Part shown: piece by piece, positions 10,364 to 21,987 of the stretch
How positions within the stretch are numbered: position 1 is the first letter of the stretch
Layout: the number at the start of each line of letters is the position of its first letter
Assembly (NCBI GenBank): GCA_041690135.1
Contig: JAWLHY010000004.1
Coordinates: 128,001-192,000 of the forward strand
Direction: 5' to 3'
From: Armatimonadota bacterium
GTDB taxonomy: Bacteria > Armatimonadota > SYMT01
DNA: 64,000 nucleotides
Made by a program: the position numbers and the translations under genes
Notes under the pieces: generated by a model
Seen by the model: only the letters and a program-made list of their open reading frames with translations
Told to the model about the DNA's origin: nothing
Database searches by the model: none

Positions 10364-11626
10364 ATGCTCTACCGGTACGGCATTGTGGCGCTCGTCGTCC
10401 TGATGCCCTGGCACGAAATCATCGTACGGCTCTGGCCGCCCCTGCGCATCTGGGATGAGGTGCTTCTCCTGCTGCTGGCCGGGGCGTTGGTCCGCGACTC
10501 CCTGCGCGAGCGAACCCTCCCGGCGCGCCGTCTGCTGCTCCCCATGGCGGCGCTTCTGGGCGTGGCTTCCGTTTCGGGGATCGCAAACCAGCTCCCCCCG
10601 GGACATGCGGCGGCGGGCATCCGGGCGCTCTTTCCGTACATGGTGGTGGGCTTGGCCGCCGCGAAGCTCCGGGAAGAGGCCGCGATCTGGCGAATTCTGC
10701 GGCTGATGGTCCTCATGGGCACGGTGGCGGCCCTCTACGGCATCGCCAGCTATCTCATGTTCCGTGTCTACGATGGCCGCAGGTTCATGCCCCTGCAGCC
10801 GGGTAATCTCGCCGAGGCCGTGCTGCTCTATCCCTACCAGTGCGGCGGCTATCCTTCCGGCTACCGGCTGGTCGGTACCATCCTGAATGACAACTATATG
10901 GGGGACTGGTTGGCCATGCTGGTACCGGTCGCCTTCGCGATGGTGAAGGTGGAAACACTCCCCATCCGCCGAGGCGGGTACCTGCTGGCGGTAATCGTGA
11001 TGACCATTGCCCTGGCCTGGACCTTTTCCCGAGCAGCATACGCCGCATTCGGAGTGGTCCTGCTCCTAACCGCCTGGAGAGTCGACCGCCGCATCCTTCT
11101 AGTCCTACCGCTCTTGGGCATCTCCGCCGCTCTCCTGGCATTTCCGGCGGATGTGTACCGGTTCTCGAATATCAGAGCGACCGAAGGGGGACGCGTGGCC
11201 GCCGTAAGAAAGGCCGCCGCCGTGCAGACGAGAAGTCCGCTTTACGGACGCGGCCCCGGAACTTCCGGCGTGATGGACCTTCACTATGCTCGCATCGCTG
11301 CCCAGATGGGACTGCTCGGGCTCGCAACCTTTGCCTGGCTGCTGCTGGCGAGCCTGGGGCTGACCCGCCGCGATACCCGAAGATCTCCGAATTGCGCCAC
11401 ACTATCGTCCGTATTGCCCATCAGCATGGGGGCTATCATGGTGGCGGCATTCGGTGGAGATGTCTGGGAAATTCCCCAACTGGCCTATACGTTCTGGACG
11501 GTTGCCGGTCTGCTCCAGGCTATGCCCGCAAGTGCAGGGTTCCGGAGCCCTGCTAACGATCCGGAGAGCGGCGATCAAACAATCCGTGTTGTCGCAGCAA
11601 GCGTACCGGTCGGATCCAGGGGGTAA
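10364..11626 (+). CDS. O-antigen ligase/Wzy-like membrane protein
   Basis: About 10-12 hydrophobic helices; RLVGTILNDNYMG, TFSRAAY, PLYGRGPG and QMGLLGL patterns. Confidence 0.75.
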   Translation: MLYRYGIVALVVLMPWHEIIVRLWPPLRIWDEVLLLLLAGALVRDSLRERTLPARRLLLPMAALLGVASVSGIANQLPPGHAAAGIRALFPYMVVGLAAAKLREEAAIWRILRLMVLMGTVAALYGIASYLMFRVYDGRRFMPLQPGNLAEAVLLYPYQCGGYPSGYRLVGTILNDNYMGDWLAMLVPVAFAMVKVETLPIRRGGYLLAVIVMTIALAWTFSRAAYAAFGVVLLLTAWRVDRRILLVLPLLGISAALLAFPADVYRFSNIRATEGGRVAAVRKAAAVQTRSPLYGRGPGTSGVMDLHYARIAAQMGLLGLATFAWLLLASLGLTRRDTRRSPNCATLSSVLPISMGAIMVAAFGGDVWEIPQLAYTFWTVAGLLQAMPASAGFRSPANDPESGDQTIRVVAASVPVGSRG

Positions 11627-12776
11627 GCCAGACCAAGCCGGGCGGAAGCGGCAGTTCGGACCAGTCCGGCGTGTTGGGCGATAGAACCCCGCGACAATAT
11701 CGCAACTGGTCCCGGAAGCGCTCCATTCCCAACAGGTCCAGGCGGACGTGCTGGAGAAGACCATGCGGCGTAATCGGAAGCGCACGCAAGCGGCGCGCAT
11801 AGTGCGCCGCTAGAACCTCTGCCGCTGGGTCCTGCGGCAATCGAGCCAGCACCCCTTGCGCAACGGTGCTATCCAATAGCTCGGCGCAAAGCAGCAAGGC
11901 CAACTGCACCCGTCGCAGGGTGCCGCTGCGCTGTGCCAAGCGACAACCATACTCCCAGTCCGCAGTCCCGTTGACGTGCAGGAGGGCCGTCAAATCGACG
12001 GCATAGCCCAGGCAGTCCCAGTGGTGGCGCGCCGCATGGACCGCGAGACAGACCAACTGGTCCTCTGGGGCAAGCGAATAAATGCGCCGCCCGAGCACGA
12101 AGCCCTCCCGGCGGCGTTGCCGAAGTTCCGCCATGTCCAGTTCGGCAAAGTACCGGCTCGAAACGCGCCAGTGCACTTCCAGGAGCACACGGTCCTCGGC
12201 CCGCAGGAACTGGAGGTGGTATCCCTCGCGAATCAGCTGCGCCGTCTGCTCCGGAGTGAGGGAGGGTGTAGCCTGGTAACCCCTCTCCACCAGCAGTTCC
12301 TGAACCCGGAAAAGCTCGGCTTCCGGAACGAGCAGATCCAGGTCCCGGAAGGACCGCTTTTCGGGGCTCCCGTAAAGACTTGCCGCCAATGCGGGTCCTT
12401 TATAGGCAATGACTTCGATCCCATGGCGGCCGAGCAGTTCGACCACCCGAAAAAGCTCCGCGGTCAGTTGCAGAGCTCGACGCGCTCCCTGCGACAGAAG
12501 CGGCGAGAGCTGGCCGCCGAGAGCCTGGGCAGCTTCGCCGTGCAGCGACCCAAGCACTCCTGCCGCCTGGGAAGATACCCGGTGGTACCGGCAGAGGGCA
12601 GCCACGCTTTCCGGAGCAAACGATCCGGTTAAGGCTCTCGCTGCATCCTCCAGAGGACGCGTGCCCAGACCCGCTCGCAGCAGGGTCAGTAGGATTTCAA
12701 AATCGGCATCACGCGTGTCCAGTGGAGTGGCTCTTTCCGTCCGCGAAGGGTTCCCTTCGGCCGATCCCGACCTCAC
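11553..12776 (-). CDS. Lasso-cluster-type nucleotidyltransferase family protein
   Basis: YKGPALAASLYG, RSFRDLDLLV (DxD), LEVHW and LAVHAARH motifs. Confidence 0.85.
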   Translation of the reverse strand: MRSGSAEGNPSRTERATPLDTRDADFEILLTLLRAGLGTRPLEDAARALTGSFAPESVAALCRYHRVSSQAAGVLGSLHGEAAQALGGQLSPLLSQGARRALQLTAELFRVVELLGRHGIEVIAYKGPALAASLYGSPEKRSFRDLDLLVPEAELFRVQELLVERGYQATPSLTPEQTAQLIREGYHLQFLRAEDRVLLEVHWRVSSRYFAELDMAELRQRRREGFVLGRRIYSLAPEDQLVCLAVHAARHHWDCLGYAVDLTALLHVNGTADWEYGCRLAQRSGTLRRVQLALLLCAELLDSTVAQGVLARLPQDPAAEVLAAHYARRLRALPITPHGLLQHVRLDLLGMERFRDQLRYCRGVLSPNTPDWSELPLPPGLVWLTPWIRPVRLLRQHGLFDRRSPDR

Positions 12777-12927
12777 CCAGGATCACTGAAATATACGCGA
12801 ATCGGATGGCCGGAGTGTGGCACACCGTGGAATCAAGCCACGAGGTACGGCCACTCGTCGCGCGAGCAACCGACAATCGTCGCGGGAGCATCGCGAACAA
12901 CCCGCGGCTCATCCTAGGGAGTGCACT

Positions 12928-13425
12928 GTGGCCGCGAGGGCAGACGAAGAACGAAAAGAGCGGGGTACGAGTTGGCGCATCCGGGGTATTGCACCCCACG
13001 AGTGGGGCTTGCTGGCAAGTGCCTGGGCAGCGCTGTTGATCGTAGATCTCGCGCTTCGGCTTTCCGGCTACCCGAAGGTGCGCCATTGGAAAGCATTCCA
13101 GGCCCGTTCGCAGCGCGCCACCGGTTCACCGCCCGGGGAACCGCAGATCACCCGGCTTTATCAGCTCGTCGCTATCGCGGCCCGCCACCATCTTTATCCC
13201 ATGCTCTGTTTGCGACGCGCCCTGGTCCTGAAGTGGCTCCTCGCCCGGCAAGGACTGGAAACCGAACTCCGATGGGGAGTCGCTCGCCACACGCCTGCGC
13301 TGAACGCCCATGCGTGGTTGACCTGGAACGGGAGGCCAATTGGTGAGCCTCGAGACCCCCACGAAACTTACACGGAATTGACTGCGGAAGGAAGTGGGAT
13401 TGAGCGCCGTCTGCGGAATAGTTGA
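12928..13425 (+). CDS. Lasso peptide leader peptidase (B2, transglutaminase-like)
   Basis: CLRRALVLKWLL...LRWGVAR...LNAHAWL catalytic Cys/His pattern; GTG start at 12928 follows AGGGAG (start uncertain). Confidence 0.88.
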   Translation: MAARADEERKERGTSWRIRGIAPHEWGLLASAWAALLIVDLALRLSGYPKVRHWKAFQARSQRATGSPPGEPQITRLYQLVAIAARHHLYPMLCLRRALVLKWLLARQGLETELRWGVARHTPALNAHAWLTWNGRPIGEPRDPHETYTELTAEGSGIERRLRNS

Positions 13426-15274
13426 CTTCGAAGAGCGCCCGATAGATCCTGGCAAACTCGCCCGCATGGTCCGCGCGATAGCCTATCGCGGGCCGGACGG
13501 GGCGCATCCGTGGGTCCACCAGAACGTTGGGCTGGCGCATCTTGCCTTTGCAACAACGTCCGAAGCCGGACGAGAACGACAGCCGCTGGTAGACCCGGAA
13601 ACGGGAATCGCGCTGGTCGGCGATATCCGCATCGACAACCGGGAAGACCTGATCGCACGCCTCGCCGGAAGCGGTCAGCTGCATCTGAACACCCCCACCG
13701 ACATCGAACTGGCGTTGGCTGCCTACAAGCGCTGGAAGAACGAGTTTCCACGCGAAATTCTAGGCGATTTCGCCCTGGCGCTTTGGGACCCGCGCGAACG
13801 CCAACTCCTGTTGACCCGAGATATCTTTGGACTTCGGCAACTCGTATACGCGCCCGTGAACGGGACAGTGGTGTTCGGCACCACCGTGGGAGCGGTGCGC
13901 GCCGCGCTGTCCGGCGAGCCGCCAATCAATCCGCGCCTCTTGATGAGCCTCCTGCGGGAGGGGTTCGGAGTGTGGACCCGAGAAACGGCCTATGCCACGA
14001 TATTTCGGGTTCCGCCCGCCACTGTCCTGACCTTTCGCGATTGCACACCTGGGGAGACCACCTACTGGGTGCTCCACCCACGTGCCGAGCGACGCACCGA
14101 TACGGAATGGCTGGATGCGTTTCGCTCTACGTTCGAAGACGCGGTGCGAGTGCGTCTCCGAACGCCTGGTCCGGTCGCCGTAGTGGTAAGCGGCGGGCTC
14201 GATTCATCCTCTGTCGCCTGTGTTGGCCATCAACTCGCGGGAAGCCCCTCACCGGCGGGGGCTCTGCGCCTCTATTCATTAGCGCTTGAGCGCACTCCCC
14301 GTGCAGACGAGCGTCAATACCAACGTGCAGTCAGCGTCGCATGTTCGGGAAGGCCTTTCACGCCGATTCCCGGCGACGATCTTTGCGCGCTCCAGGAGTT
14401 TGGGCGCGATTCCGGCTTCGACCTGGATGAGCCGGAAGTCGAAGTGAACCGCAACTTCCTGTCAGTGCCCTTTCGCCGGGCCGCTTCCGATGGATGCCGG
14501 GTGGTCTTCACCGGCCACGGTGGCGACGAGGTGCTAGGCGGCAGAGCCTACTTTCAACCGGATCTTCTGGCGGATGTAGGGCTGCACCGCCTGTGGACAG
14601 AGTTGGAGCACTTTCGTCGTGGCTGCCGTCAACCCGCCTGGCGGCTCCTACTGTACACCTACGGAAGACAAATTATCCCGCGAGGGCTGGTGCGCGCCGC
14701 ACGCCGGTGGTCGTCTCCCCCTTCGCTCCGCAATCTGGAGTTTGCCCTGGATGTCAATTACGGGAGAAAAGACCGGCGGGCCATGCCCACCTGCTCCGCG
14801 CAGGTAGTCCACGAACGGCTGGACCGTGGCTACTACCGAGCCCACCTGCAAATGCTCGAGCGGGTTGCGGCCAACGAGAGCCTCGAAATCCGCCTGCCTT
14901 TCCTCGACCGTCGCGTTGTCGAATGCCTGGTCTCTATACCGCCACACTTGCGCTTCCGTGACGGCTGGTCGAAATACATCCTACGACACGCGCTTCGCGA
15001 CTATCTTCCGGAGTGTGTGCGGGAACGCAGAAGCCACAGCGAATTCTCCGGATTGATCGACCGCGGACTGCTTGAAGTCAATCGTCAACGCGTGGAGGCC
15101 CTCCTCTCCGGCTCACACGTCGCCCGGGAAGGGTTGCTGGATCCTTCCGCGATCGCGCGTATGTGGAGTGTCTATCGTCAGGGAAGCGTAGCGACCGAGC
15201 GCCTACTCTTGACCCGACTGCTTTGTGTCGAAGAATGGCTACGAACGCGAAACCTTTCCCACGAAATCGGATAG
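13400..15274 (+). CDS. Lasso peptide cyclase (C; asparagine synthetase homolog)
   Basis: MSAVCG N-terminus (TTG start, Cys not at position 2), RGPDG, SGGLDSS ATP-pyrophosphatase loop, TGHGGDE and RLPFLDRRVVE; lies between B2 and the precursor. Confidence 0.9.
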   Translation: MSAVCGIVDFEERPIDPGKLARMVRAIAYRGPDGAHPWVHQNVGLAHLAFATTSEAGRERQPLVDPETGIALVGDIRIDNREDLIARLAGSGQLHLNTPTDIELALAAYKRWKNEFPREILGDFALALWDPRERQLLLTRDIFGLRQLVYAPVNGTVVFGTTVGAVRAALSGEPPINPRLLMSLLREGFGVWTRETAYATIFRVPPATVLTFRDCTPGETTYWVLHPRAERRTDTEWLDAFRSTFEDAVRVRLRTPGPVAVVVSGGLDSSSVACVGHQLAGSPSPAGALRLYSLALERTPRADERQYQRAVSVACSGRPFTPIPGDDLCALQEFGRDSGFDLDEPEVEVNRNFLSVPFRRAASDGCRVVFTGHGGDEVLGGRAYFQPDLLADVGLHRLWTELEHFRRGCRQPAWRLLLYTYGRQIIPRGLVRAARRWSSPPSLRNLEFALDVNYGRKDRRAMPTCSAQVVHERLDRGYYRAHLQMLERVAANESLEIRLPFLDRRVVECLVSIPPHLRFRDGWSKYILRHALRDYLPECVRERRSHSEFSGLIDRGLLEVNRQRVEALLSGSHVAREGLLDPSAIARMWSVYRQGSVATERLLLTRLLCVEEWLRTRNLSHEIG

Positions 15275-15325
15275 ACTCAGGCTGAGAGCACTGTCTCACA
15301 ACCGGATGGCTGTTAGGAGCTAGCG

Positions 15326-15508
15326 ATGATGACTGAAACGGGTACCGCCACGACTGAAGCCGGGGCCGCAGGCCCAAAACAGAATCCGATGCCGCCTTCC
15401 CGGAAGCCTTACGAAGCGCCGCGGATCACCCACCTGGGGCAGGTCGAAGCGGTGACTCAAGATGGTGGCGGGGCGTTCGTCGACGGTCTGGGAACTTCAC
15501 AAATCTAA
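15326..15508 (+). CDS. Lasso peptide precursor (A); predicted core DGGGAFVDGLGTSQI at 15461-15505
   Basis: RBS AGGAG; leader YEAPRITHLGQVEAVTQ places Y-17, P-14, I-12, G-8 and T-2 at canonical spacing; acceptor Asp at core position 8. Confidence 0.88.
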   Translation: MMTETGTATTEAGAAGPKQNPMPPSRKPYEAPRITHLGQVEAVTQDGGGAFVDGLGTSQI

Positions 15509-15523
15509 GGGCACAGCTATCAG

Positions 15524-16708
15524 TTGGGGGGCGGTCTGCAACCTACGCTCGTTCCCATCTCCCTTGACCCGTCCCTCCTCGCGTCCTATGCGACAGCATT
15601 TGGCCTCGCGGACGCCAAGGAGGGTGCACAGTATCTCGCCACGGCCATAGCTACCGGATCTTTCTGGAACGATTACCAGCCGAGTGTACTCGTCATTCGA
15701 CTGGATAGCGATCCGATAGCGGCCGCTATCGGCTTCTTCGATGCCGCTGCCCGTTCCCGATTGGCAGCACAGGCGAAGGCGCTGCATGCGGGCTTGCGCC
15801 GCTTGAAATATGTTGACGATCAAACGGTCCGATCGGCTGTTTCACAACTGGCAAGCAAGCTCCGCGACCGCTTCGGCTGTGACTTTCTCCAATCGTGTCG
15901 CTTCACGGCCATCCCACGGGGCGGGCTGATTGTTCTTGGCTGGCTCTCGTATGAACTGGGTCTGAAACCGGACCAACTAGAGCCTCCCGACGACGCAGGC
16001 GTGCCCCTGGTAGTTGTAGACGACTGTGCGATCACCGGAGCCCGCTTTGGCGCCTGGCTCCGGAAAAACCCACACCGCAATGTCGTCTTCGCACATCTGT
16101 ACTCCCCGGCTGCCACCTGCAGGAATATCCTGGATCGCGAGCCGCGAGTGCAGGAGTGTCTTTCCGCCTTCGACCTCGCTGACTATGGTAGGGAAGATCT
16201 CGGCGGTGGCCTGGGCGATTGGGAACAGGAATGGACCGCCCGTATGAGCGGCTCTCGCTACTGGATTGGCCGCACCGACTACGTTTGCTTTCCCTGGGGT
16301 GAACCCGATCGGTCGGTTGCCGACCCGCTAACGGGCGGAACTTTGCCCGCCTGGCCTCTGGTCCCCGGGTGCCCAAACAAGAGCCCCACACCTCTCCAGG
16401 ACCCTGGGGTGACTGTAAGCTCGATTCCGGGTACCTTGGGGGGACATCGCCTGCCGGATGGCGTCGTTTACGGTGAGGTGGCGGGTTGGACCGTGGTAGG
16501 AAACCTGTACACGGGGGCCTGCATAGGCTTGCGGGAGAGCGGTGCCAGCTTCTGGGAAGCCCTGCGGATATCCTCTTCCCGCCGAGAAGCCCTGGAGACT
16601 CTGCAGGCGGAATATGGGGTCGATGCCGCGACTCTCGAAACGGACCTGGAACGGTTCGTCGCCGAATTGGCACAACTCGGTTTTCTCCACTCCCCAGCCG
16701 ATGCCTGA
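15524..16708 (+). CDS. Type I phosphoribosyltransferase-like domain fused to a C-terminal PqqD/RRE (lasso B1) domain
   Basis: FTAIPRGG (PPi loop), LVVVDDCAITG (PRPP-binding motif) and VCFPW; the last ~85 aa (GLRESGASFWEAL...LQAEYGVDAATLETDLERFVAELAQLGFL) match the PqqD pattern. Start uncertain. Confidence 0.8.
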   Translation: MGGGLQPTLVPISLDPSLLASYATAFGLADAKEGAQYLATAIATGSFWNDYQPSVLVIRLDSDPIAAAIGFFDAAARSRLAAQAKALHAGLRRLKYVDDQTVRSAVSQLASKLRDRFGCDFLQSCRFTAIPRGGLIVLGWLSYELGLKPDQLEPPDDAGVPLVVVDDCAITGARFGAWLRKNPHRNVVFAHLYSPAATCRNILDREPRVQECLSAFDLADYGREDLGGGLGDWEQEWTARMSGSRYWIGRTDYVCFPWGEPDRSVADPLTGGTLPAWPLVPGCPNKSPTPLQDPGVTVSSIPGTLGGHRLPDGVVYGEVAGWTVVGNLYTGACIGLRESGASFWEALRISSSRREALETLQAEYGVDAATLETDLERFVAELAQLGFLHSPADA

Positions 16709-17735
16709 TCTAGAGTTCCAGCAAGCCTCCCCGTCCCGCTCATACCCCTCGCCACCGACGTATGCAGTCTACGGCGTGTGCTTCGATTCGGATTTCGCGT
16801 TTCGCACACCGCTCCCTCGCGTGACGGGGAAACCCTCCTTTCGTTACCTCTGCCGGGCCGACCGATACCGAGTACCGGTCCCAGCGCCAGAGATCTATCG
16901 GAGCCGAAGGGTCGCTACCGATGGCACTCCCAGCCTTATCCTCCGACAACATGGGGATACGATTGCCTTTTGCCTCCCTGACGGCACCCATCTCGTTCTC
17001 CGTCCGGACCAGATCGAGGCATACGCGGCGGATGAGCGACAGCAAACGATGGCGGAAATCTGCCTACTCGGGACCGTTCTCTCCTACTTGCGAGAGAGGG
17101 AAGGAATCCCTGTTCTCCACGCATCCGTAGTCGCGGTGGAGGGGAAAGGGGTGGCATTCCTGGCAGGAAACGGCGGGGGAAAGAGCAGTTTGGCGGCCGC
17201 TCTGATGCAGAAGGGATATCCGTTGGTGTCGGATGACCTGCTGCCGATCTTGACCCACTCGGGACGCTACGTAGCCGCCGCCGGGTACCCGCAGATGCGC
17301 TTCTGGCCGCAGGAGGCCCGCTTCTTCGTGGATGAGAGCAACAAACTAGAGCGGGTCCATCCGGACTTGGAAAAGCGACGCGTGCCGGTCGGTCTCCACG
17401 GCTTTGGCTCGTTCTGCGCACACGCTCTTCCCCTCTCGGCGATTTACCTACCGGAGCGCCACCCTGCCGCAGAACTCCAAGCACGTGTGGAAATTGTCCC
17501 CGTTCCACCTCGCGAGGCACTCGTTGCCCTGACTTCCCAGTTATTCATCCGCCCCCTCCTTGCCGAGTTCGGTTGGCTGGGCGAGCGGCTGCGCTTCCTC
17601 GCGCAGTTGACCCAGTGTATCCCCGTGCGACGACTACGCTATCCCTCGGGGATGAGCCGATTGGGCGACGTCGTGGAGCGAATCCTCGAAGACTTGGGCC
17701 ACGATCCACACCCAGGGTCCCCTAGCCCAACGTAA
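16701..17735 (+). CDS. HPr-kinase-like lasso peptide kinase
   Basis: LHASVV, Walker A AGNGGGKSS and LVSDD motifs; overlaps the PRTase-RRE stop. Confidence 0.85.
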   Translation: MPDLEFQQASPSRSYPSPPTYAVYGVCFDSDFAFRTPLPRVTGKPSFRYLCRADRYRVPVPAPEIYRSRRVATDGTPSLILRQHGDTIAFCLPDGTHLVLRPDQIEAYAADERQQTMAEICLLGTVLSYLREREGIPVLHASVVAVEGKGVAFLAGNGGGKSSLAAALMQKGYPLVSDDLLPILTHSGRYVAAAGYPQMRFWPQEARFFVDESNKLERVHPDLEKRRVPVGLHGFGSFCAHALPLSAIYLPERHPAAELQARVEIVPVPPREALVALTSQLFIRPLLAEFGWLGERLRFLAQLTQCIPVRRLRYPSGMSRLGDVVERILEDLGHDPHPGSPSPT

Positions 17736-17777: not shown

Positions 17778-17808
17778 AAAAAAAACCGGCTGGGTGACCC
17801 AGCCGGTT
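17778..17808 (-). terminator. Intrinsic terminator for the minus-strand surface-protein gene (possibly bidirectional)
   Basis: Perfect stem AACCGGCTGGG-tga-CCCAGCCGGTT with an A-run on the left, which reads as a U-run on the minus strand. Confidence 0.75.
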
Positions 17809-17876
17809 CAGGTTGATGGTGGCTTTTAGGGAACTGCCGCACGGGCCGCCATTCCTCAGTTGCCACTACAATTGCC

Positions 17877-20800
17877 CTACTTTTTCTTGCCTTTGCCCTT
17901 TCCGCCGCCAGCCTCGCTGTCACTGGTGCCGCCGCCGGTGGTATCACCGCTGCTACTACCACCAGTGCTACCACTCGACGATCCCGAAATCGCTACGGTG
18001 GCGGTATCCGCCGCCGTCACCGTCTCGTCGCCGTAGCGAGCCGTCACCGTGGCCGTGTTGGTCACGTCCTGCGCCGTGGGGGTCAGGTTGATGGTGTCGA
18101 TCTTGGCCGGCGAGTTGTGGACATCCGGGGAGGTCACCGTGCCGAACCCACTCGTCCCGAAGGCCGCCGCACTCACTTCCACGCTGTAGATGCTCCGCAC
18201 TTCCCAGTTCGGATCCCCCACCGGAGAGTTGGTCGTATAGCCGTGGTAGGCCGGCGACTGGTTCAGGTTGTCGCTCGCGGACGTGCTCACTGCCAGCACG
18301 TGCGCTGCGCTCCCCTTGATCATGTAGCCGTCCCCACCACTCACTCCCAACGTGCCGTAGCGCGAGGGGAACTGGCTCGAAGCGCTGATGCAGTCCACGT
18401 AGAAGTCCAGCACCACCTGCCCGGCGGCGTTGGTGAACCGGAACTCCGCGTGATCGCTGTTCAGCAAGTCCTTGAAAGTATGACCCTTCCCGGACCCGCC
18501 TCGGTATCCAGGCGCCGATCCCGTGCCGTAGGTGTTGTCCACCACGGCCAGGCTCTGGATGAACGTCGCCTTCACGTTGCCGTTCGCCAGCTTCTCGGCA
18601 ATCAGCACCCCGGCGATCGTGCCATCGGAGGAAGCCATCACCAATGGCGGGACCACCGTCTTCGTCAGCGTCGTGCTGGCGCCAGGGGCCAGAGAAGCCA
18701 CCGTCCCCACCACAAAATCGTCCGCTCCGAACTCCGGCGTGGCGTTGTCGTCAGTCACCGTCACGTCCGTGAGGGTCACGTCGCCCGTATTGGTTACCTT
18801 GTAAGTGTAAGTCACCGGTTGGCCGGGTGTGGCCTGCGCGGTAGCCGCTGTCTTCTCCAGCGCGATCTCCGGCTCGCCGCCCACGATTCCGGCGTCCACC
18901 GACAGGTCAGTCTGACCGGGGGCGAGGGTGATAACCCCGGTGCGCCCGGTGGCCGCGTCCACGTCGCTGTCGGAGAGGTCGCTGCCCTGGTTGGCGGTGG
19001 TGAACTGCGCGCCACCTGCGGGGACAAACTCCACACTATAGCTGCCGGCCTGAAGACCTTCAAACAGGTAGAGGCCGTCCGCATCCGTGGTATCCACGGC
19101 CACGACACTGCCGCTGCCATTCAGCAGCCGCACGGTCACTCCGGAGACGCCCGTCTCGCCGCTGTCCTGCTGACCATTTCCGTTGGCGTCGAGCCATACC
19201 CGGTCGCCCAGGTTTGCCGGCAGGGGCTTGTAGCCGAAGTCCACGTCCAGCCGGATGGCGTTCACCCCCAGCGTCGTTAGCGCCGTGTGCGCCGTCCCCA
19301 CGCCGTCCAGGTCGTAGGTCTGCCCCAGCCCGGGCAGCAGCGTGCTCGGGTCCACCACTACCGTGTAGCTCCCCGCTTCCAGTTGCGTGAACAGGTACTG
19401 CCCATTCGCGCCGGTCACCTGGCTCGCCACCACGTTTCCGTCCGCGTCCCGCAACTGCACGGTGACGCCCGTGAGCCCGGCCTCGCCTGGGTCCTGCAGG
19501 CCGTCCCCGTCCTCGTCCAGCCACACCCGGTCGCCCAGGTTCGAGTTGAACAACCGCGGCGCATAGCCGAAGTCATAGGTCAACACGTCTTCCGCCGACA
19601 CGTTCCGGGTCAGCACATCCCCGCCCGTGGTGCTGCGCAACTCCGCCAGCGGACCGCCCGGCAGGAAGTTGTCCGGAGCTACCCGCACGGTGTAGTCGCC
19701 CGCCGTGGCCACCGGGTAGTAGTAGAGGCCGTCCACGTTCGTGTAGATGTAGTCCAACAACGTGCCATTGCTGTCATACACCCCCAACTTCACCCCGGCA
19801 ATACCCGCGTTCAGCTCGTCCTGGTCACCCTCGTGATCGCTGTCCAGCCACACGTAGTCGCCCAGGATCCCCGCCACCGGCCCCGGTGGGAACCGCAGCT
19901 TCGGATCTCCGTTCTCGTCCATTCCCACCGCGTCGTGGAAGAACCGGAAGGCGTTCAGGTTGTGCAGGTCCATCCCCTTCACCTTCACCTGGTAGTTGCC
20001 CGCCCGGAACCGCCCGTTGGCGTTCACATCCGTTGGTGCCACCGTCGTCACCCCGTCGGCCGACGCCACCGGGCTGTAGTCTGCCTGGCTCCGGTCCAGC
20101 GGGTCCGTGGTGATCAGGAACCGCTCCCACTCCTGGTTGCCGGACGTGTTCAGGTTCCGGAACTCCTTCACGCTCGGCTCCGGCTGCAGCACCTTCCCCT
20201 CCGCCGTGTCGACCAGTGCATGCGTGCGACACACACTGTATTCCACGCTCGGCTCTCGCCGCTGATACGCCACGCCGGTGTCGTCGTTGGGCGCGCCTTT
20301 CCCCTTCGCCCCTTCCGCCAACGTGTACTTGTTCGCCCACAGGGGCAGCACCGCCGACGTATCCGGGTCGTCTGTGTCGTTTGTTTGCGGGACCAGTGCC
20401 GTGTTATTGCCGTAGTCCAGGTCCCCGTCCCACACTTCCAGGAAGGCCGTGTCCTCCGGTACCGTCAGGTTGATATCCCAGGTGCCGTCATAGTTAGTGG
20501 GGGTGGTGGCGGGCCAAGCCGGGTAGATGGTGGTGATGTCGTTCATCGAATACATGGGCGACATCACCGAGATTGCCTGGGCGAGAATGCTGATGGTGGC
20601 GTTGCTGCGGATCTTGAAACAGCTCACCGAGTTCACGTCCGGAAGCGGGTTCTCGATGCGCAGCACGTAGTAGAAATGCCGGTTGTGCGGGTTGCGCGCC
20701 GCGGAGTTGGTGCGGATGACGCGGTTGCGGTCTTCCGGCGCGCTCGGCGGGCTCAACTCCGACTGGTCGGCCTGGAGGTTATACCAGGCGTTGTTGGGCA

Positions 20801-21266
20801 TGGGGCTCTTGTTCAGACCGCCGGCAATGGTGCCGTCGCCGCCGTTGCCCATCCACCGGCCGACCAGGTAACGCCCGGAAGCATCGCCGCGGGGGTCGGC
20901 GTAGAGGGAGTACCGCAGGGAAGTGTAGAAGGCGTCCCAGTGGCCGTGCTGGAAATTGCCGCTCATAACCGGCGCTTGGGGCGGACCGGAAGCGCCGGTG
21001 TCGCCGTCGAAGATGCCGATCTCGAAGTCGGTGGCGTCGGCCGGCACCTCGAAGGCGATGGTGATGGTGTTGGCGGAGAGGGTCGCGGGGGCGGGCCCGC
21101 CGGCCATCACGAGGGAGCGGCCGTCGAGGACGTTCCCGGTGGGAAAGTAGTTGTAGTCGCTCGACGCCTGGGCTCGCGCGCTACGCACGGCGACCGAGGC
21201 GGGGAGGAGCAGGGCCGCCAGCACCCCGGCCATGCCGAGGAAGGTCGACCTCTTCAGAAACCTCAT
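17877..21266 (-). CDS. Large secreted/surface protein with three SdrD-B (Cna-B-like) repeats and a DUF11/DUF7507-like Ig domain
   Basis: RBS GGAGG; signal peptide; LGD(Y/R)VWLD x3; TYTYKVTNTGDVTLTDVTVTDD; Ser/Gly tail ending GKGKGKKK. Confidence 0.85.
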   Translation of the reverse strand: MRFLKRSTFLGMAGVLAALLLPASVAVRSARAQASSDYNYFPTGNVLDGRSLVMAGGPAPATLSANTITIAFEVPADATDFEIGIFDGDTGASGPPQAPVMSGNFQHGHWDAFYTSLRYSLYADPRGDASGRYLVGRWMGNGGDGTIAGGLNKSPMPNNAWYNLQADQSELSPPSAPEDRNRVIRTNSAARNPHNRHFYYVLRIENPLPDVNSVSCFKIRSNATISILAQAISVMSPMYSMNDITTIYPAWPATTPTNYDGTWDINLTVPEDTAFLEVWDGDLDYGNNTALVPQTNDTDDPDTSAVLPLWANKYTLAEGAKGKGAPNDDTGVAYQRREPSVEYSVCRTHALVDTAEGKVLQPEPSVKEFRNLNTSGNQEWERFLITTDPLDRSQADYSPVASADGVTTVAPTDVNANGRFRAGNYQVKVKGMDLHNLNAFRFFHDAVGMDENGDPKLRFPPGPVAGILGDYVWLDSDHEGDQDELNAGIAGVKLGVYDSNGTLLDYIYTNVDGLYYYPVATAGDYTVRVAPDNFLPGGPLAELRSTTGGDVLTRNVSAEDVLTYDFGYAPRLFNSNLGDRVWLDEDGDGLQDPGEAGLTGVTVQLRDADGNVVASQVTGANGQYLFTQLEAGSYTVVVDPSTLLPGLGQTYDLDGVGTAHTALTTLGVNAIRLDVDFGYKPLPANLGDRVWLDANGNGQQDSGETGVSGVTVRLLNGSGSVVAVDTTDADGLYLFEGLQAGSYSVEFVPAGGAQFTTANQGSDLSDSDVDAATGRTGVITLAPGQTDLSVDAGIVGGEPEIALEKTAATAQATPGQPVTYTYKVTNTGDVTLTDVTVTDDNATPEFGADDFVVGTVASLAPGASTTLTKTVVPPLVMASSDGTIAGVLIAEKLANGNVKATFIQSLAVVDNTYGTGSAPGYRGGSGKGHTFKDLLNSDHAEFRFTNAAGQVVLDFYVDCISASSQFPSRYGTLGVSGGDGYMIKGSAAHVLAVSTSASDNLNQSPAYHGYTTNSPVGDPNWEVRSIYSVEVSAAAFGTSGFGTVTSPDVHNSPAKIDTINLTPTAQDVTNTATVTARYGDETVTAADTATVAISGSSSGSTGGSSSGDTTGGGTSDSEAGGGKGKGKKK

Positions 21267-21987
21267 TACGAACCTCCAATTATCTGGAAGCGGATGATTC
21301 CCGGATCGCTGCCGGGTTGCACGTCGGTTGGCTGGGTCTTGACCAAACAATACTGCTAGTGGACGACAGTCCCTACACCCTAAGTGCCACAGTCGATCCA
21401 CCTTCTGAAGGGATGGTTGTCCCTATGGGCAGCCATATTGGGGGACTTTCATCCACCAGGAGAAAGGTTTGCGGTAGGTCGCGGGGGCTAGAGGCGAGTA
21501 GCTCTACTACTGACGGTGACCATACCATTCCTTTGGTGGACAAGCATTCAACCGTTCGGTTTATAAGAAGGCAAATGGTACTGAGAAGGGGGGGCCGGAG
21601 GTCCGTTGACCTCGCGAGTACCGCACGGTCGAGATTCACGTGAGAGTGCCTCGTAACGTGAACGAGGCTCATGGGTCCCTGGGCGCGGGGTGGGAGTCCC
21701 GGCGGTAGTCCGGTACTTCGTGCGACCACCGATTCCGAACCCCGGGCTGCCGTCCGGCCTCCCCTCCCGCGCCAAATGAGGGCGATTGGGTCAAACTGTC
21801 GCTCACGGGAGAGAGGGAGCACCGACCCGGACCCCGGACTGCCGTCTCGCGCCGGATGGGGATTGGGATCCGGGCTTATGGCGCGCGTTAGGGTTGAAGG
21901 ATGAGAACCCGCAGCTCCGCGAGGAGGGTAGGGCGAAGCAATTCGCAGTAACCCTTGATCACCGTCGGCATGGTTGGCGGATCCCGC

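Follow-up and report, generated by a model that had tools for sequence, protein, structure and literature searches.

A phosphoribosyltransferase-like domain fused to the B1 protein of a lasso peptide cluster from an Armatimonadota bacterium

Among the described systems closest to the one treated here, kinase-type lasso peptide clusters are reported to (poly)phosphorylate serine, a hexose then being added to the phosphate by a nucleotidyltransferase (NTase; PMC8498205, PMC9266682), and a tailoring NTase is found fused to the leader peptidase B2 in firmicute lasso clusters (PMC8498205). Lasso B1 proteins have been described as promoting tailoring, including hydroxylation and epimerisation (PMC8498205, PMC9266682, PMC5067487), and a 2026 paper reports linear polyphosphorylated peptides (LPPs) from Bacillota that are made by a discrete recognition element (RRE) of RiPPs (peptides made on ribosomes and modified after translation) together with an HprK-like kinase (PMC13381572). 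Here we analyse a lasso peptide cluster in a 64,000-nucleotide stretch of an Armatimonadota genome (the window; GenBank assembly GCA_041690135.1, contig JAWLHY010000004.1, positions 128,001 to 192,000; coordinates below count from its first letter), in which the gene at 15524–16708 encodes a phosphoribosyltransferase (PRT)-like domain fused to an RRE. It is highly probable, as one joint claim, that this gene is the only B1 of its cluster, that its RRE binds and presents the precursor, and that its N-terminal part is a conserved, obligate PRT-fold homologue found across many phyla.

The fusion protein and its family

The fusion gene and the elements recognised in its product are the following.

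15524–16708, + strand: fusion of a PRT-like N-domain with a lasso B1/RRE, 394 amino acids (aa), TTG start
15689–16339, + strand: conserved N-domain, aa 56–272, including a PRT-like core at aa ~96–240; mean column identity in alignment A2, 50%
15908–15925, + strand: AIPRGG, aa 129–134, putative pyrophosphate-binding loop, aligned with the PRGG of TT1426-like proteins and, in PDB entry 1vdm, with RGG
16010–16045, + strand: VVVDDCAITGAR, aa 163–174, a motif like the phosphoribosyl pyrophosphate (PRPP) loop, aligned to VDD..TG of 2yzk, 1vdm and 1wd5
16289–16306, + strand: FPWGEP after the core, aa 256–261, weakly aligned to the C-terminal FPWEE of the purine PRTase 1vdm
16439–16693, + strand: RRE/PqqD-like domain, aa ~306–390, three strands followed by three helices

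Profile searches and structure prediction agree on the C-terminal part. PF05402 (PqqD/RRE) matches aa 330–388 with E 5.8e-12 (score 46.2 bits, cut-off 23.4), and the family profile finds TbiB1 (PDB 5v1u) with E 1.2e-16 over 84 residues and TfuB1 (6jx3) with E 2.5e-6; in NCBIfam, the window protein has nothing but weak PqqD matches, the lasso_PqqD models scoring 20 bits with cut-offs of 70–80. In the AlphaFold2 model, this region (predicted local distance difference test, pLDDT, ~95) has the three strands (314–319, 322–327, 332–336) and three helices (339–349, 353–364, 368–384) of a winged-helix fold. A six-frame search of the whole 9.1-Mb genome with PF05402 returned seven PqqD matches, the fusion open reading frame (ORF) being the sole one within the window, and the B2 ORF at 12817–13425 matches only Transglut_core3 and lasso_biosyn_B2 (aa 66–188). 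The first-pass annotation, made from the letters alone, had proposed that the gene directly after the precursor ends in a PqqD/RRE domain, that no separate B1 gene is visible and that B2 carries no RRE; all of this was borne out, with a gap of 15 nt between the precursor stop and the start of the fusion ORF. Its proposal that the protein serves as the B1 of the cluster, fused to a PRT-like domain, agrees with this evidence on the sole RRE beside a precursor and split B2 and C proteins, and with the profile–profile match (Prob 93.4) and predicted motif placement described below. The only in-frame start past the upstream stop codon is the TTG at 15524, and the long N-terminus is real, since homologues align to the protein from residue ~10.

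Conservation along the protein peaks in the PRT-like core, where mean pairwise identity is 52%, against 46% in the post-core segment, 37% in the RRE and 22% in the first 55 residues. Across 39 homologues that are 31–42% identical to the query, P131, G133, G134, V165, D166, D167, C168, G172, F256 and W258 are invariant, and R132, R174 and E260 are conserved in at least 90%. The motifs named by the first-pass annotation (AIPRGG, VVVDDCAITGAR and FPW) lie where it had placed them and include these invariant residues; the second is laid out as a hydrophobic strand, two Asp and then a Gly loop, while the likeness of FPWGEP to FPWEE of 1vdm has no significance alone. Among the best 150 of 497 N-domain representatives (see below), PRGG is kept in 145, DDC in 140 and FxWx[ED] in 138 (134–145 overall), and the motif matches exceed chance.

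The fusion of a PRT-like domain with B1 (PRT-B1) is a real, widespread family. A word-index search yielded 88 homologues of 233–444 aa and 31–48% identity, 81 of them with a precomputed PF05402 match and two with PF00156; where the databases give a name, it is 'PqqD family protein' or 'peptide modification chaperone'. We then searched 1.84 billion representatives of 50%-identity clusters with a profile of the N-domain only (A2, aa 56–272, 41 sequences), which gave 497 matches at E≤1e-3; of these, 421 have E≤1e-10 and 378 have E≤1e-30. An RRE is also present on 138 of the best 150 of these 497 representatives, and 10 of the remaining 12 seem to be truncated, ending no more than 43 residues past the N-domain. 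Nine shorter proteins with stand-alone N-domains were found, mostly fragments; longer proteins, such as fusions with the kinase or other domains, were not found by this search, which is weak evidence. Among sequencing runs, only small shares (0.05–0.09 of words) were found, in four soil metagenomes, with no RNA run listed.

In species-representative genomes, 88 loci contain a relative, and the 80 kept for context analysis come from Acidobacteriota, Gemmatimonadota, the Halomonas/Litchfieldella/Billgrantia group, Spirochaetes, Chloroflexota, Cyanobacteria, Salinibacteraceae (Salinibacter), Trueperaceae, Actinomycetota and two metagenome-assembled genomes (MAGs) of methanogens. The two Methanomicrobia MAG contigs (L025 3330–3770, L029 539–1000) each hold a cyclase, the fusion and two tandem precursor genes; a lasso cluster on archaeal-binned contigs is unusual, if the binning is right. 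Within the phylum of the window, the N-domain occurs in one of 201 sampled genomes, that of the window itself. Together with a dip in G+C content (62.4% in the cluster, 11553–17735, against 66.2% and 65.1% in its flanks), this suggests that the cluster was horizontally acquired.

Relationship of the N-domain to the PRT fold

Curated PRT profiles do not recognise the window protein. Neither PF00156 nor PF24390 (PRTase-CE) of Pfam matches it at E≤0.1, and a six-frame search of the genome with PF00156 at E≤0.001 returned eight other PRTases, with the fusion ORF absent. The profile check proposed by the first-pass annotation therefore came out in two halves, the PqqD part standing above its cut-off and the Pribosyltran (PF00156) part failing on the window protein. 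Among 39 family members, PF00156 is matched by 20 and PF24390 by 32 at E≤1. When four members were scanned singly, one of them, P0035, exceeded the PF00156 cut-off (28.8 bits against 26.3); the best member match to PF24390 has E 7.1e-5, and every member match to that profile stays under the cut-off. Direct profile matches to the PDB are weak (E 0.13–0.7; 2yzk 0.13, 1vdm 0.48, 1wd5 0.61), and their alignments pair RGG and VDD..G and, with 1vdm, also the C-terminal FPWE.

Profile–profile comparison gave a clearer result. One stand-alone PRT-like protein of the genome of the window, L090, is a match to PDB 1wd5 (TT1426) with E 2.6e-42, and 29 TT1426-like relatives of L090 collected from the phylum, a family which we take to be COG1926, were used as an hhalign template. 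The N-domain alignment of 162 sequences matched this template at Prob 93.4 (P 2.4e-7, 130 columns) and a smaller alignment of 41 sequences at Prob 86.6, against 0.7 for the reversed-template control, <5% for single-sequence templates of other PRTases and ≤0.5% for unrelated proteins of the window. With PRTase-CE (five true members), the alignment was confined to 23 columns near the DD loop, at Prob 5.3.

Structural models point in the same direction. The ESM Atlas model of the homologue P0016 (mean pLDDT 0.64) resembles PRTase-CE and Pribosyltran clusters with query-normalised template modelling (TM) scores of 0.50–0.66; for the homologue P0051, listed without a model, only scores below 0.85 were returned. 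From alignment A1, AlphaFold2 modelled the window protein with confidence as one chain (mean pLDDT 92.5, predicted TM score, pTM, 0.88). In this model, a strand at 126–129 leads into PRGG and a helix at 133–145, followed by a strand at 162–168 that ends in DDC, a helix at 173–181, a strand at 187–194, another helix and a strand at 209–217. Strand–loop–helix is the expected setting of the pyrophosphate and PRPP loops in type I PRTases. Both loops have a predicted counterpart in the window protein: P131-R132-G133-G134 lies between strand 126–129 and helix 133–145, and LVVVDDCAITGAR, with D166, D167 and G172 invariant, lies between strand 162–168 and helix 173–181, deviating by a Cys after DD and an Arg at the last loop position. 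Together, the profile comparisons and predicted models support homology of the N-domain to TT1426/1wd5-like PRT-fold proteins. This match gives the fold, not the activity.

Cluster layout, precursor and genomic neighbourhood

The fusion gene is part of a compact lasso peptide cluster with the plus-strand order B2–C–A–[PRT-B1]–K, where A is the precursor, C the cyclase and K a kinase. The other features of this region are as follows.

11553–12776, − strand: NTP_transf_5 NTase-like gene, divergent from the lasso operon (PF14907, E 4.4e-47)
12817–13425, + strand: lasso leader peptidase B2, transglutaminase-like (PF13471, Transglut_core3, E 1.2e-21, aa 72–188)
13394–15274, + strand: lasso cyclase C, asparagine synthetase-like (PF00733, E 2.1e-48, plus GATase_7)
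15326–15508, + strand: precursor peptide, 60 aa (weak NF033521 lasso_leader_L3 match, E 0.005, score 16.8 bits, cut-off 19)
16701–17735, + strand: HprK-like P-loop kinase (Hpr_kinase_C E 4.8e-6, TIGR04352 E 4.5e-8, both under cut-off)
17783–17809, no strand assigned: 12-bp GC-rich hairpin, a terminator-like site scored on the minus strand

B2, whose true start may lie downstream of 12817, scores 64.1 bits with NF033537 lasso_biosyn_B2 (cut-off 33), and the cyclase matches the lasso cyclase model NF033535 with E 1e-106 and 358 bits, under the cut-off of 525. The kinase gene starts (ATG at 16701) before the fusion gene has ended, and the two share 8 nt; the P-loop of the kinase reads GNGGGKSS, and its residues G160, K161, D178 and D179 are invariant in 31 orthologues. 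The kinase gene and the NTP_transf_5 gene had both been left out of the first-pass annotation. The hairpin at 17783–17809 separates the kinase gene from the convergent gene at 17877–21401 and is likely the end of the operon; terminator-like sites in the region are no commoner than the shuffled expectation. No transporter gene lies near the window cluster. The gene at 17877–21401 (− strand) encodes a large, secreted-looking SdrD_B-repeat protein, which also adjoins the cluster in the Holophagales locus L031 (8246–10537), and PKD-OmpA proteins come after the fusion gene in L002 and L008; either arrangement may be coincidence.

The precursor leader carries YEAPRITHLGQVEAVT-Q, and the core reads DGGGAFVDGLGTSQI, or GGGAFVD... 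with cleavage one residue later; were translation to begin at an internal ATG (15389), the precursor would have 39 aa. The leader pattern (K/R)xYxxPxLxxWGxVxDLT-x stands just upstream of the fusion in ~54 of the 80 loci (57 matched, three of them judged implausible). At codon 46 (15461–15463), the Thr(-2) rule and the family alignment place the start of a core DGGGAFVD with a ring from Asp1 to Asp8, while the later cleavage would give Gly1–Asp7; Asp as core residue 1 is unusual for a lasso peptide, if the Thr(-2) rule holds. Aligned on this Thr(-2), the cores fall into two groups. In the first, to which the window belongs, an 8-residue ring (position 1 to Asp8) is followed by a short tail that closes with Gly-Thr/Ser-x-x-x (GLGTSQI in the window), and the second has [V/T/A]GxTxPGxD and, later, Gly-Ser-[V/I/A]. 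The tail Gly-Ser/Thr (15494–15499 in the window) is kept, four to ~ten residues from the C-terminus, in loci without a kinase as well, and is for this reason the foremost candidate for the place where the kinase and, if active, the PRT-like domain would act. Judged from this sequence pattern, it may be the acceptor of a modification.

To characterise the neighbourhood of the family, we ran iterated hidden Markov models of window proteins on six-frame ORFs of the 80 loci. A cyclase was found in 61 loci, a kinase in 62, B2 in 20 and an NTase (NTP_transf_5) in 13. The 39 loci of at least 14 kb contain C in 35 cases, the kinase in 31 and one or the other in 38, so that the survey suggested by the first-pass annotation ties the fusion to lasso genes. 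Of 74 loci in which 1 kb or more of sequence follows the fusion gene, 49 have the kinase gene directly downstream on the same strand; it is next to the fusion gene on either side in 47 of 63. A kinase beside the fusion places the cluster in the known phosphorylating lasso type. In 11 cyclase-bearing loci the kinase is absent within ~7 kb, and the N-domain motifs are intact in these loci and in the cyanobacterial ones. In 25 of the 39 long loci, no B2 was detected at a distance of up to ~7 kb; such loci are split clusters, since PF13471 B2-like genes are present elsewhere in five of five genomes tested (26–60 kb away in two). The idea that the N-domain stands in for the leader peptidase was rejected on the same finding, and the window has both genes.

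Several loci depart from the layout of the window. In the Halomonas group (L056, L061 and L077, with L047 and L062 by arrangement), cyclase, precursor, fusion and, in part, kinase lie beside truA and trpF, with B2 beyond 7 kb; kinase as well as B2 are missing nearby in L056, L062, L073 and L077. A fuller Halomonas version (L066, 1369–9225) comprises NTP_transf_5, an ABC transporter of 606 aa, cyclase, precursor, fusion and kinase. Genes for PRMT-like and FkbM-type methyltransferases and an S8 subtilase, candidates for tailoring or processing, directly follow the kinase in L071 (8702–10015), L075 (8552–9403) and L032 (9768–11672). In the Acidobacteriota locus L008 (4765–6717), the cyclase is split into two ORFs of 363 and 269 aa; a frameshift or sequencing error is possible, and the cluster may be decaying. 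The cyanobacterial loci show a block of CHAT protease, HprK-like kinase and fusion (L012 4145–8437, L013 4103–8182, L060 6032–8125), to which L012 adds a 50-aa precursor of the lasso_cyano family. A lasso cyclase above the NCBIfam cut-off is encoded elsewhere in three of four tested cyanobacterial genomes (~70 kb away in the complete genome of L012), and this finding, with the lasso_cyano peptide, weakens a reading of these loci as unrelated to lasso peptides.

Possible roles of the PRT-like domain and comparison with known systems

We regard it as most likely, at a probability of roughly one in three and equal in weight to the adaptor or sensor role weighed below, that the PRT-like domain is a leader-guided peptide-tailoring enzyme. 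In the scheme we propose, the C-terminal RRE would bind the YxxPxL...T leader and present the precursor to B2, to the cyclase C and probably to the kinase. The PRT-like domain would bind PRPP or a related ribose-5-phosphate ligand through its RGG loop and its DD...G...R loop, and would act on the RRE-tethered linear precursor. The likeliest product would carry ribose-5-phosphate (+212 Da) on the tail residues Thr57/Ser58, or on a phosphate placed there by the kinase, and such an adduct would be analogous to the hexose on the phosphoserine of pseudomycoidin. As the specific reaction we propose that the tail Ser/Thr, or its phosphate, is phosphoribosylated from PRPP, which is plausible but less likely than not; the same holds for a new RiPP modification in which a PRPP-dependent phosphoribosyltransferase embedded in B1 makes a phospho(di)ester-linked ribosyl lasso peptide.

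Activity of the domain is favoured by the invariance of RGG and DD...G and by the PRT core being the most conserved part of the protein. Precedents are the NTase–B2 fusions, in which a tailoring enzyme is joined to a B protein, and the B1 proteins that promote tailoring (PMC8498205, PMC9266682). The domain is probably not merely a dock for the kinase, since its motifs are kept in the 11 loci without a nearby kinase and in the cyanobacterial loci. The first-pass annotation knew of no PRPP-dependent lasso tailoring, and our literature search agrees within its limits: two reviews contain no word beginning 'ribosyl', the accessible portions of the lasso and LPP texts PMC8498205, PMC9266682, PMC5067487 and PMC13381572 do not mention a PRT-like domain, and no description of the PRT-B1 fusion or its domain was found in the literature searched, supplementary tables being outside its reach.

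A number of observations weigh against a tailoring enzyme. No PRT model reaches its threshold on the window protein, whether in Pfam, in NCBIfam or in the six-frame PF00156 search. In the AlphaFold2 model, the RGG helix and the DD strand are ~16 residues apart (146–161), with one short helix and no strands between them, and 12–66 residues are missing there in every alignment to 2yzk, 1vdm and the TT1426-like proteins. In type I PRTases, this inter-motif region holds a flexible catalytic loop or hood, no counterpart of which was found at this place in the window protein; aa 1–125 or 241–300 might substitute for it. The phosphate loop ends in Arg, where Thr/Ser is usual, and DD is followed by an invariant Cys. 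In known type I PRTases, the nucleophile is an N or C atom of a small molecule, and no conserved His, Arg, Lys or Trp is prominent in the precursor cores. To our knowledge, the closest relatives, the TT1426/1wd5-like proteins, have no known function. PRT-like sensors keep the motifs too, PyrR being among the matches of the TT1426-like protein, and the tight linkage to the kinase suits an adaptor role equally well.

That role is the rival of equal standing. The domain would then transfer nothing and act as an adaptor or sensor, docking the HprK-like kinase (perhaps also B2 or C) onto the precursor, or it would gate maturation by a phospho-ligand such as PRPP, a nucleotide, an alarmone or polyphosphorylated Ser/Thr. 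The kinase beside the fusion invites this explanation, both through the 8-nt gene overlap and through the adjacency counts (49 of 74 directly downstream, 47 of 63 on either side), and the kinase–fusion pair stays intact in cyanobacterial loci with the cyclase ~70 kb off; however, the 11 cyclase loci without a kinase within ~7 kb keep the domain with all its motifs intact. The missing flexible-loop segment would suit a domain of this kind, and PRT-fold regulators exist, PurR and the above-mentioned PyrR among them. Non-catalytic E1-like RRE scaffolds in cyclodehydratases are a precedent, but the known scaffolds have lost their catalytic motifs, whereas the PRT core is the best conserved part of the fusion protein. 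Reviews propose that B1 may assist phosphorylation (PMC9266682); yet the paeninodin- and LPP-type firmicute kinases work with a small discrete RRE (PMC8498205, PMC13381572), which argues that the kinase needs no such domain.

It is improbable, though less so than the readings dismissed below, that the domain is an enzyme of some other chemistry, either acting on the (poly)phosphate that the kinase adds, for instance by trimming, pyrophosphorolysis or nucleotide-linked transfer, or making a small-molecule co-substrate for NTP_transf_5. We know of no precedent for this. The RGG and DD...G loops are phosphate- or ribose-phosphate-binding elements, and both the Arg for Thr in the phosphate loop and the invariant Cys are atypical of PRTases. 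Related kinases polyphosphorylate Ser (PMC8498205, PMC9266682, PMC13381572), but the kinase is absent from 11 cyclase loci, NTP_transf_5 occurs in only 13 of 80 loci, and fusion to an RRE argues for a peptide, not a small-molecule, substrate.

A fusion artefact (frameshift or assembly), chance motifs or a defence system in place of RiPP machinery retain next to no probability: the lack of a PRT match for the window protein in Pfam and NCBIfam, and the fact that PRTase-CE, the most frequent weak Pfam match of the members, marks type III retron effectors (PMC13712802), would speak for them, but the architecture recurs in 138 representatives out of the best 150 as well as in 80 loci of many phyla and is modelled as one confident chain (pTM 0.88), by which an artefact is excluded, and the PRTase-CE comparison is confined to 23 columns at Prob 5.3, with a lasso precursor, B2 and C at the locus. 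In PADLOC, none of fusion, kinase and NTase had a match, nor did the kinase and fusion of the cyanobacterial loci, and the likeness to PRTase-CE is that of the DD loop, so a defence system was rejected; the CHAT protein of L012 has a weak BovA match there (E 0.0062).

Lasso peptides are prized scaffolds, and new tailoring reactions widen what can be made and engineered. If the domain is catalytic, it would bring a new modification of peptides and extend the PRT fold to a new class of acceptors; if phosphoribosylation proves true, no earlier type I PRT-fold enzyme would have had a peptide as its acceptor, and this one would occur in several hundred clusters from more than ten phyla. If it is an adaptor or sensor, it would answer a question that reviews leave open, namely the way in which a kinase is recruited or gated by an RRE.

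Compared with TbiB1 (5v1u), TfuB1 (6jx3) and PadeB1, the fusion protein is alike in its C-terminal ~85 residues, in RRE layout, in the YxxPxL...T leader and in being the sole RRE beside split B2 and C. Known discrete B1 proteins have ~90–120 aa, whereas the fusion adds ~300 N-terminal residues with a PRT-like domain conserved above the RRE; B1 is thus about four times its usual size in one whole branch of lasso clusters.

Paeninodin, pseudomycoidin and the proteobacterial SyanK type share with the window cluster an HprK-like kinase and an NTP_transf_5 NTase beside A, B1, B2 and C. According to the accessible texts, those systems combine an ordinary B1 with a C-terminal Ser acceptor; here the precursor ends GLGTSQI, with the conserved hydroxyl residue four from the end, the gene order is B2–C–A–[PRT-B1]–K, and the kinase is far under the TIGR04352 and Pfam cut-offs. 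The NTase–B2 fusions are similar in placing a tailoring-type domain on one half of the B protein in a kinase-type cluster, and differ in that the NTase sits on the peptidase half. LPP clusters share the module of RRE and HprK-like kinase and a lasso-like [Y/W]xxPx[L/V/I] leader, but as described they have a small discrete RRE, a signal-peptidase-like leader peptidase, no cyclase and no PRT-like domain (PMC13381572).

With PRTase-CE (PF24390), the type III retron effector domain, the family shares the DD-x-x-x-S-G loop, weak matches of members and a TM score of 0.66 for one homologue; the window protein itself has no match to this family profile, and there is no retron or defence context. The stand-alone TT1426 (1wd5)-like proteins are closest by profile–profile comparison, with PRGG and VDD..G aligned, but they have ~66 more residues between the motifs and Thr/Ser where the fusion family has Arg, and they have neither the RRE nor the first 125 residues nor the FPW(N/G)EPD segment. 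Set beside these systems, PRT-B1 is a new, widespread form of lasso B1, in which the RRE is permanently fused to a constrained PRT-like domain in a module with an HprK-like kinase.

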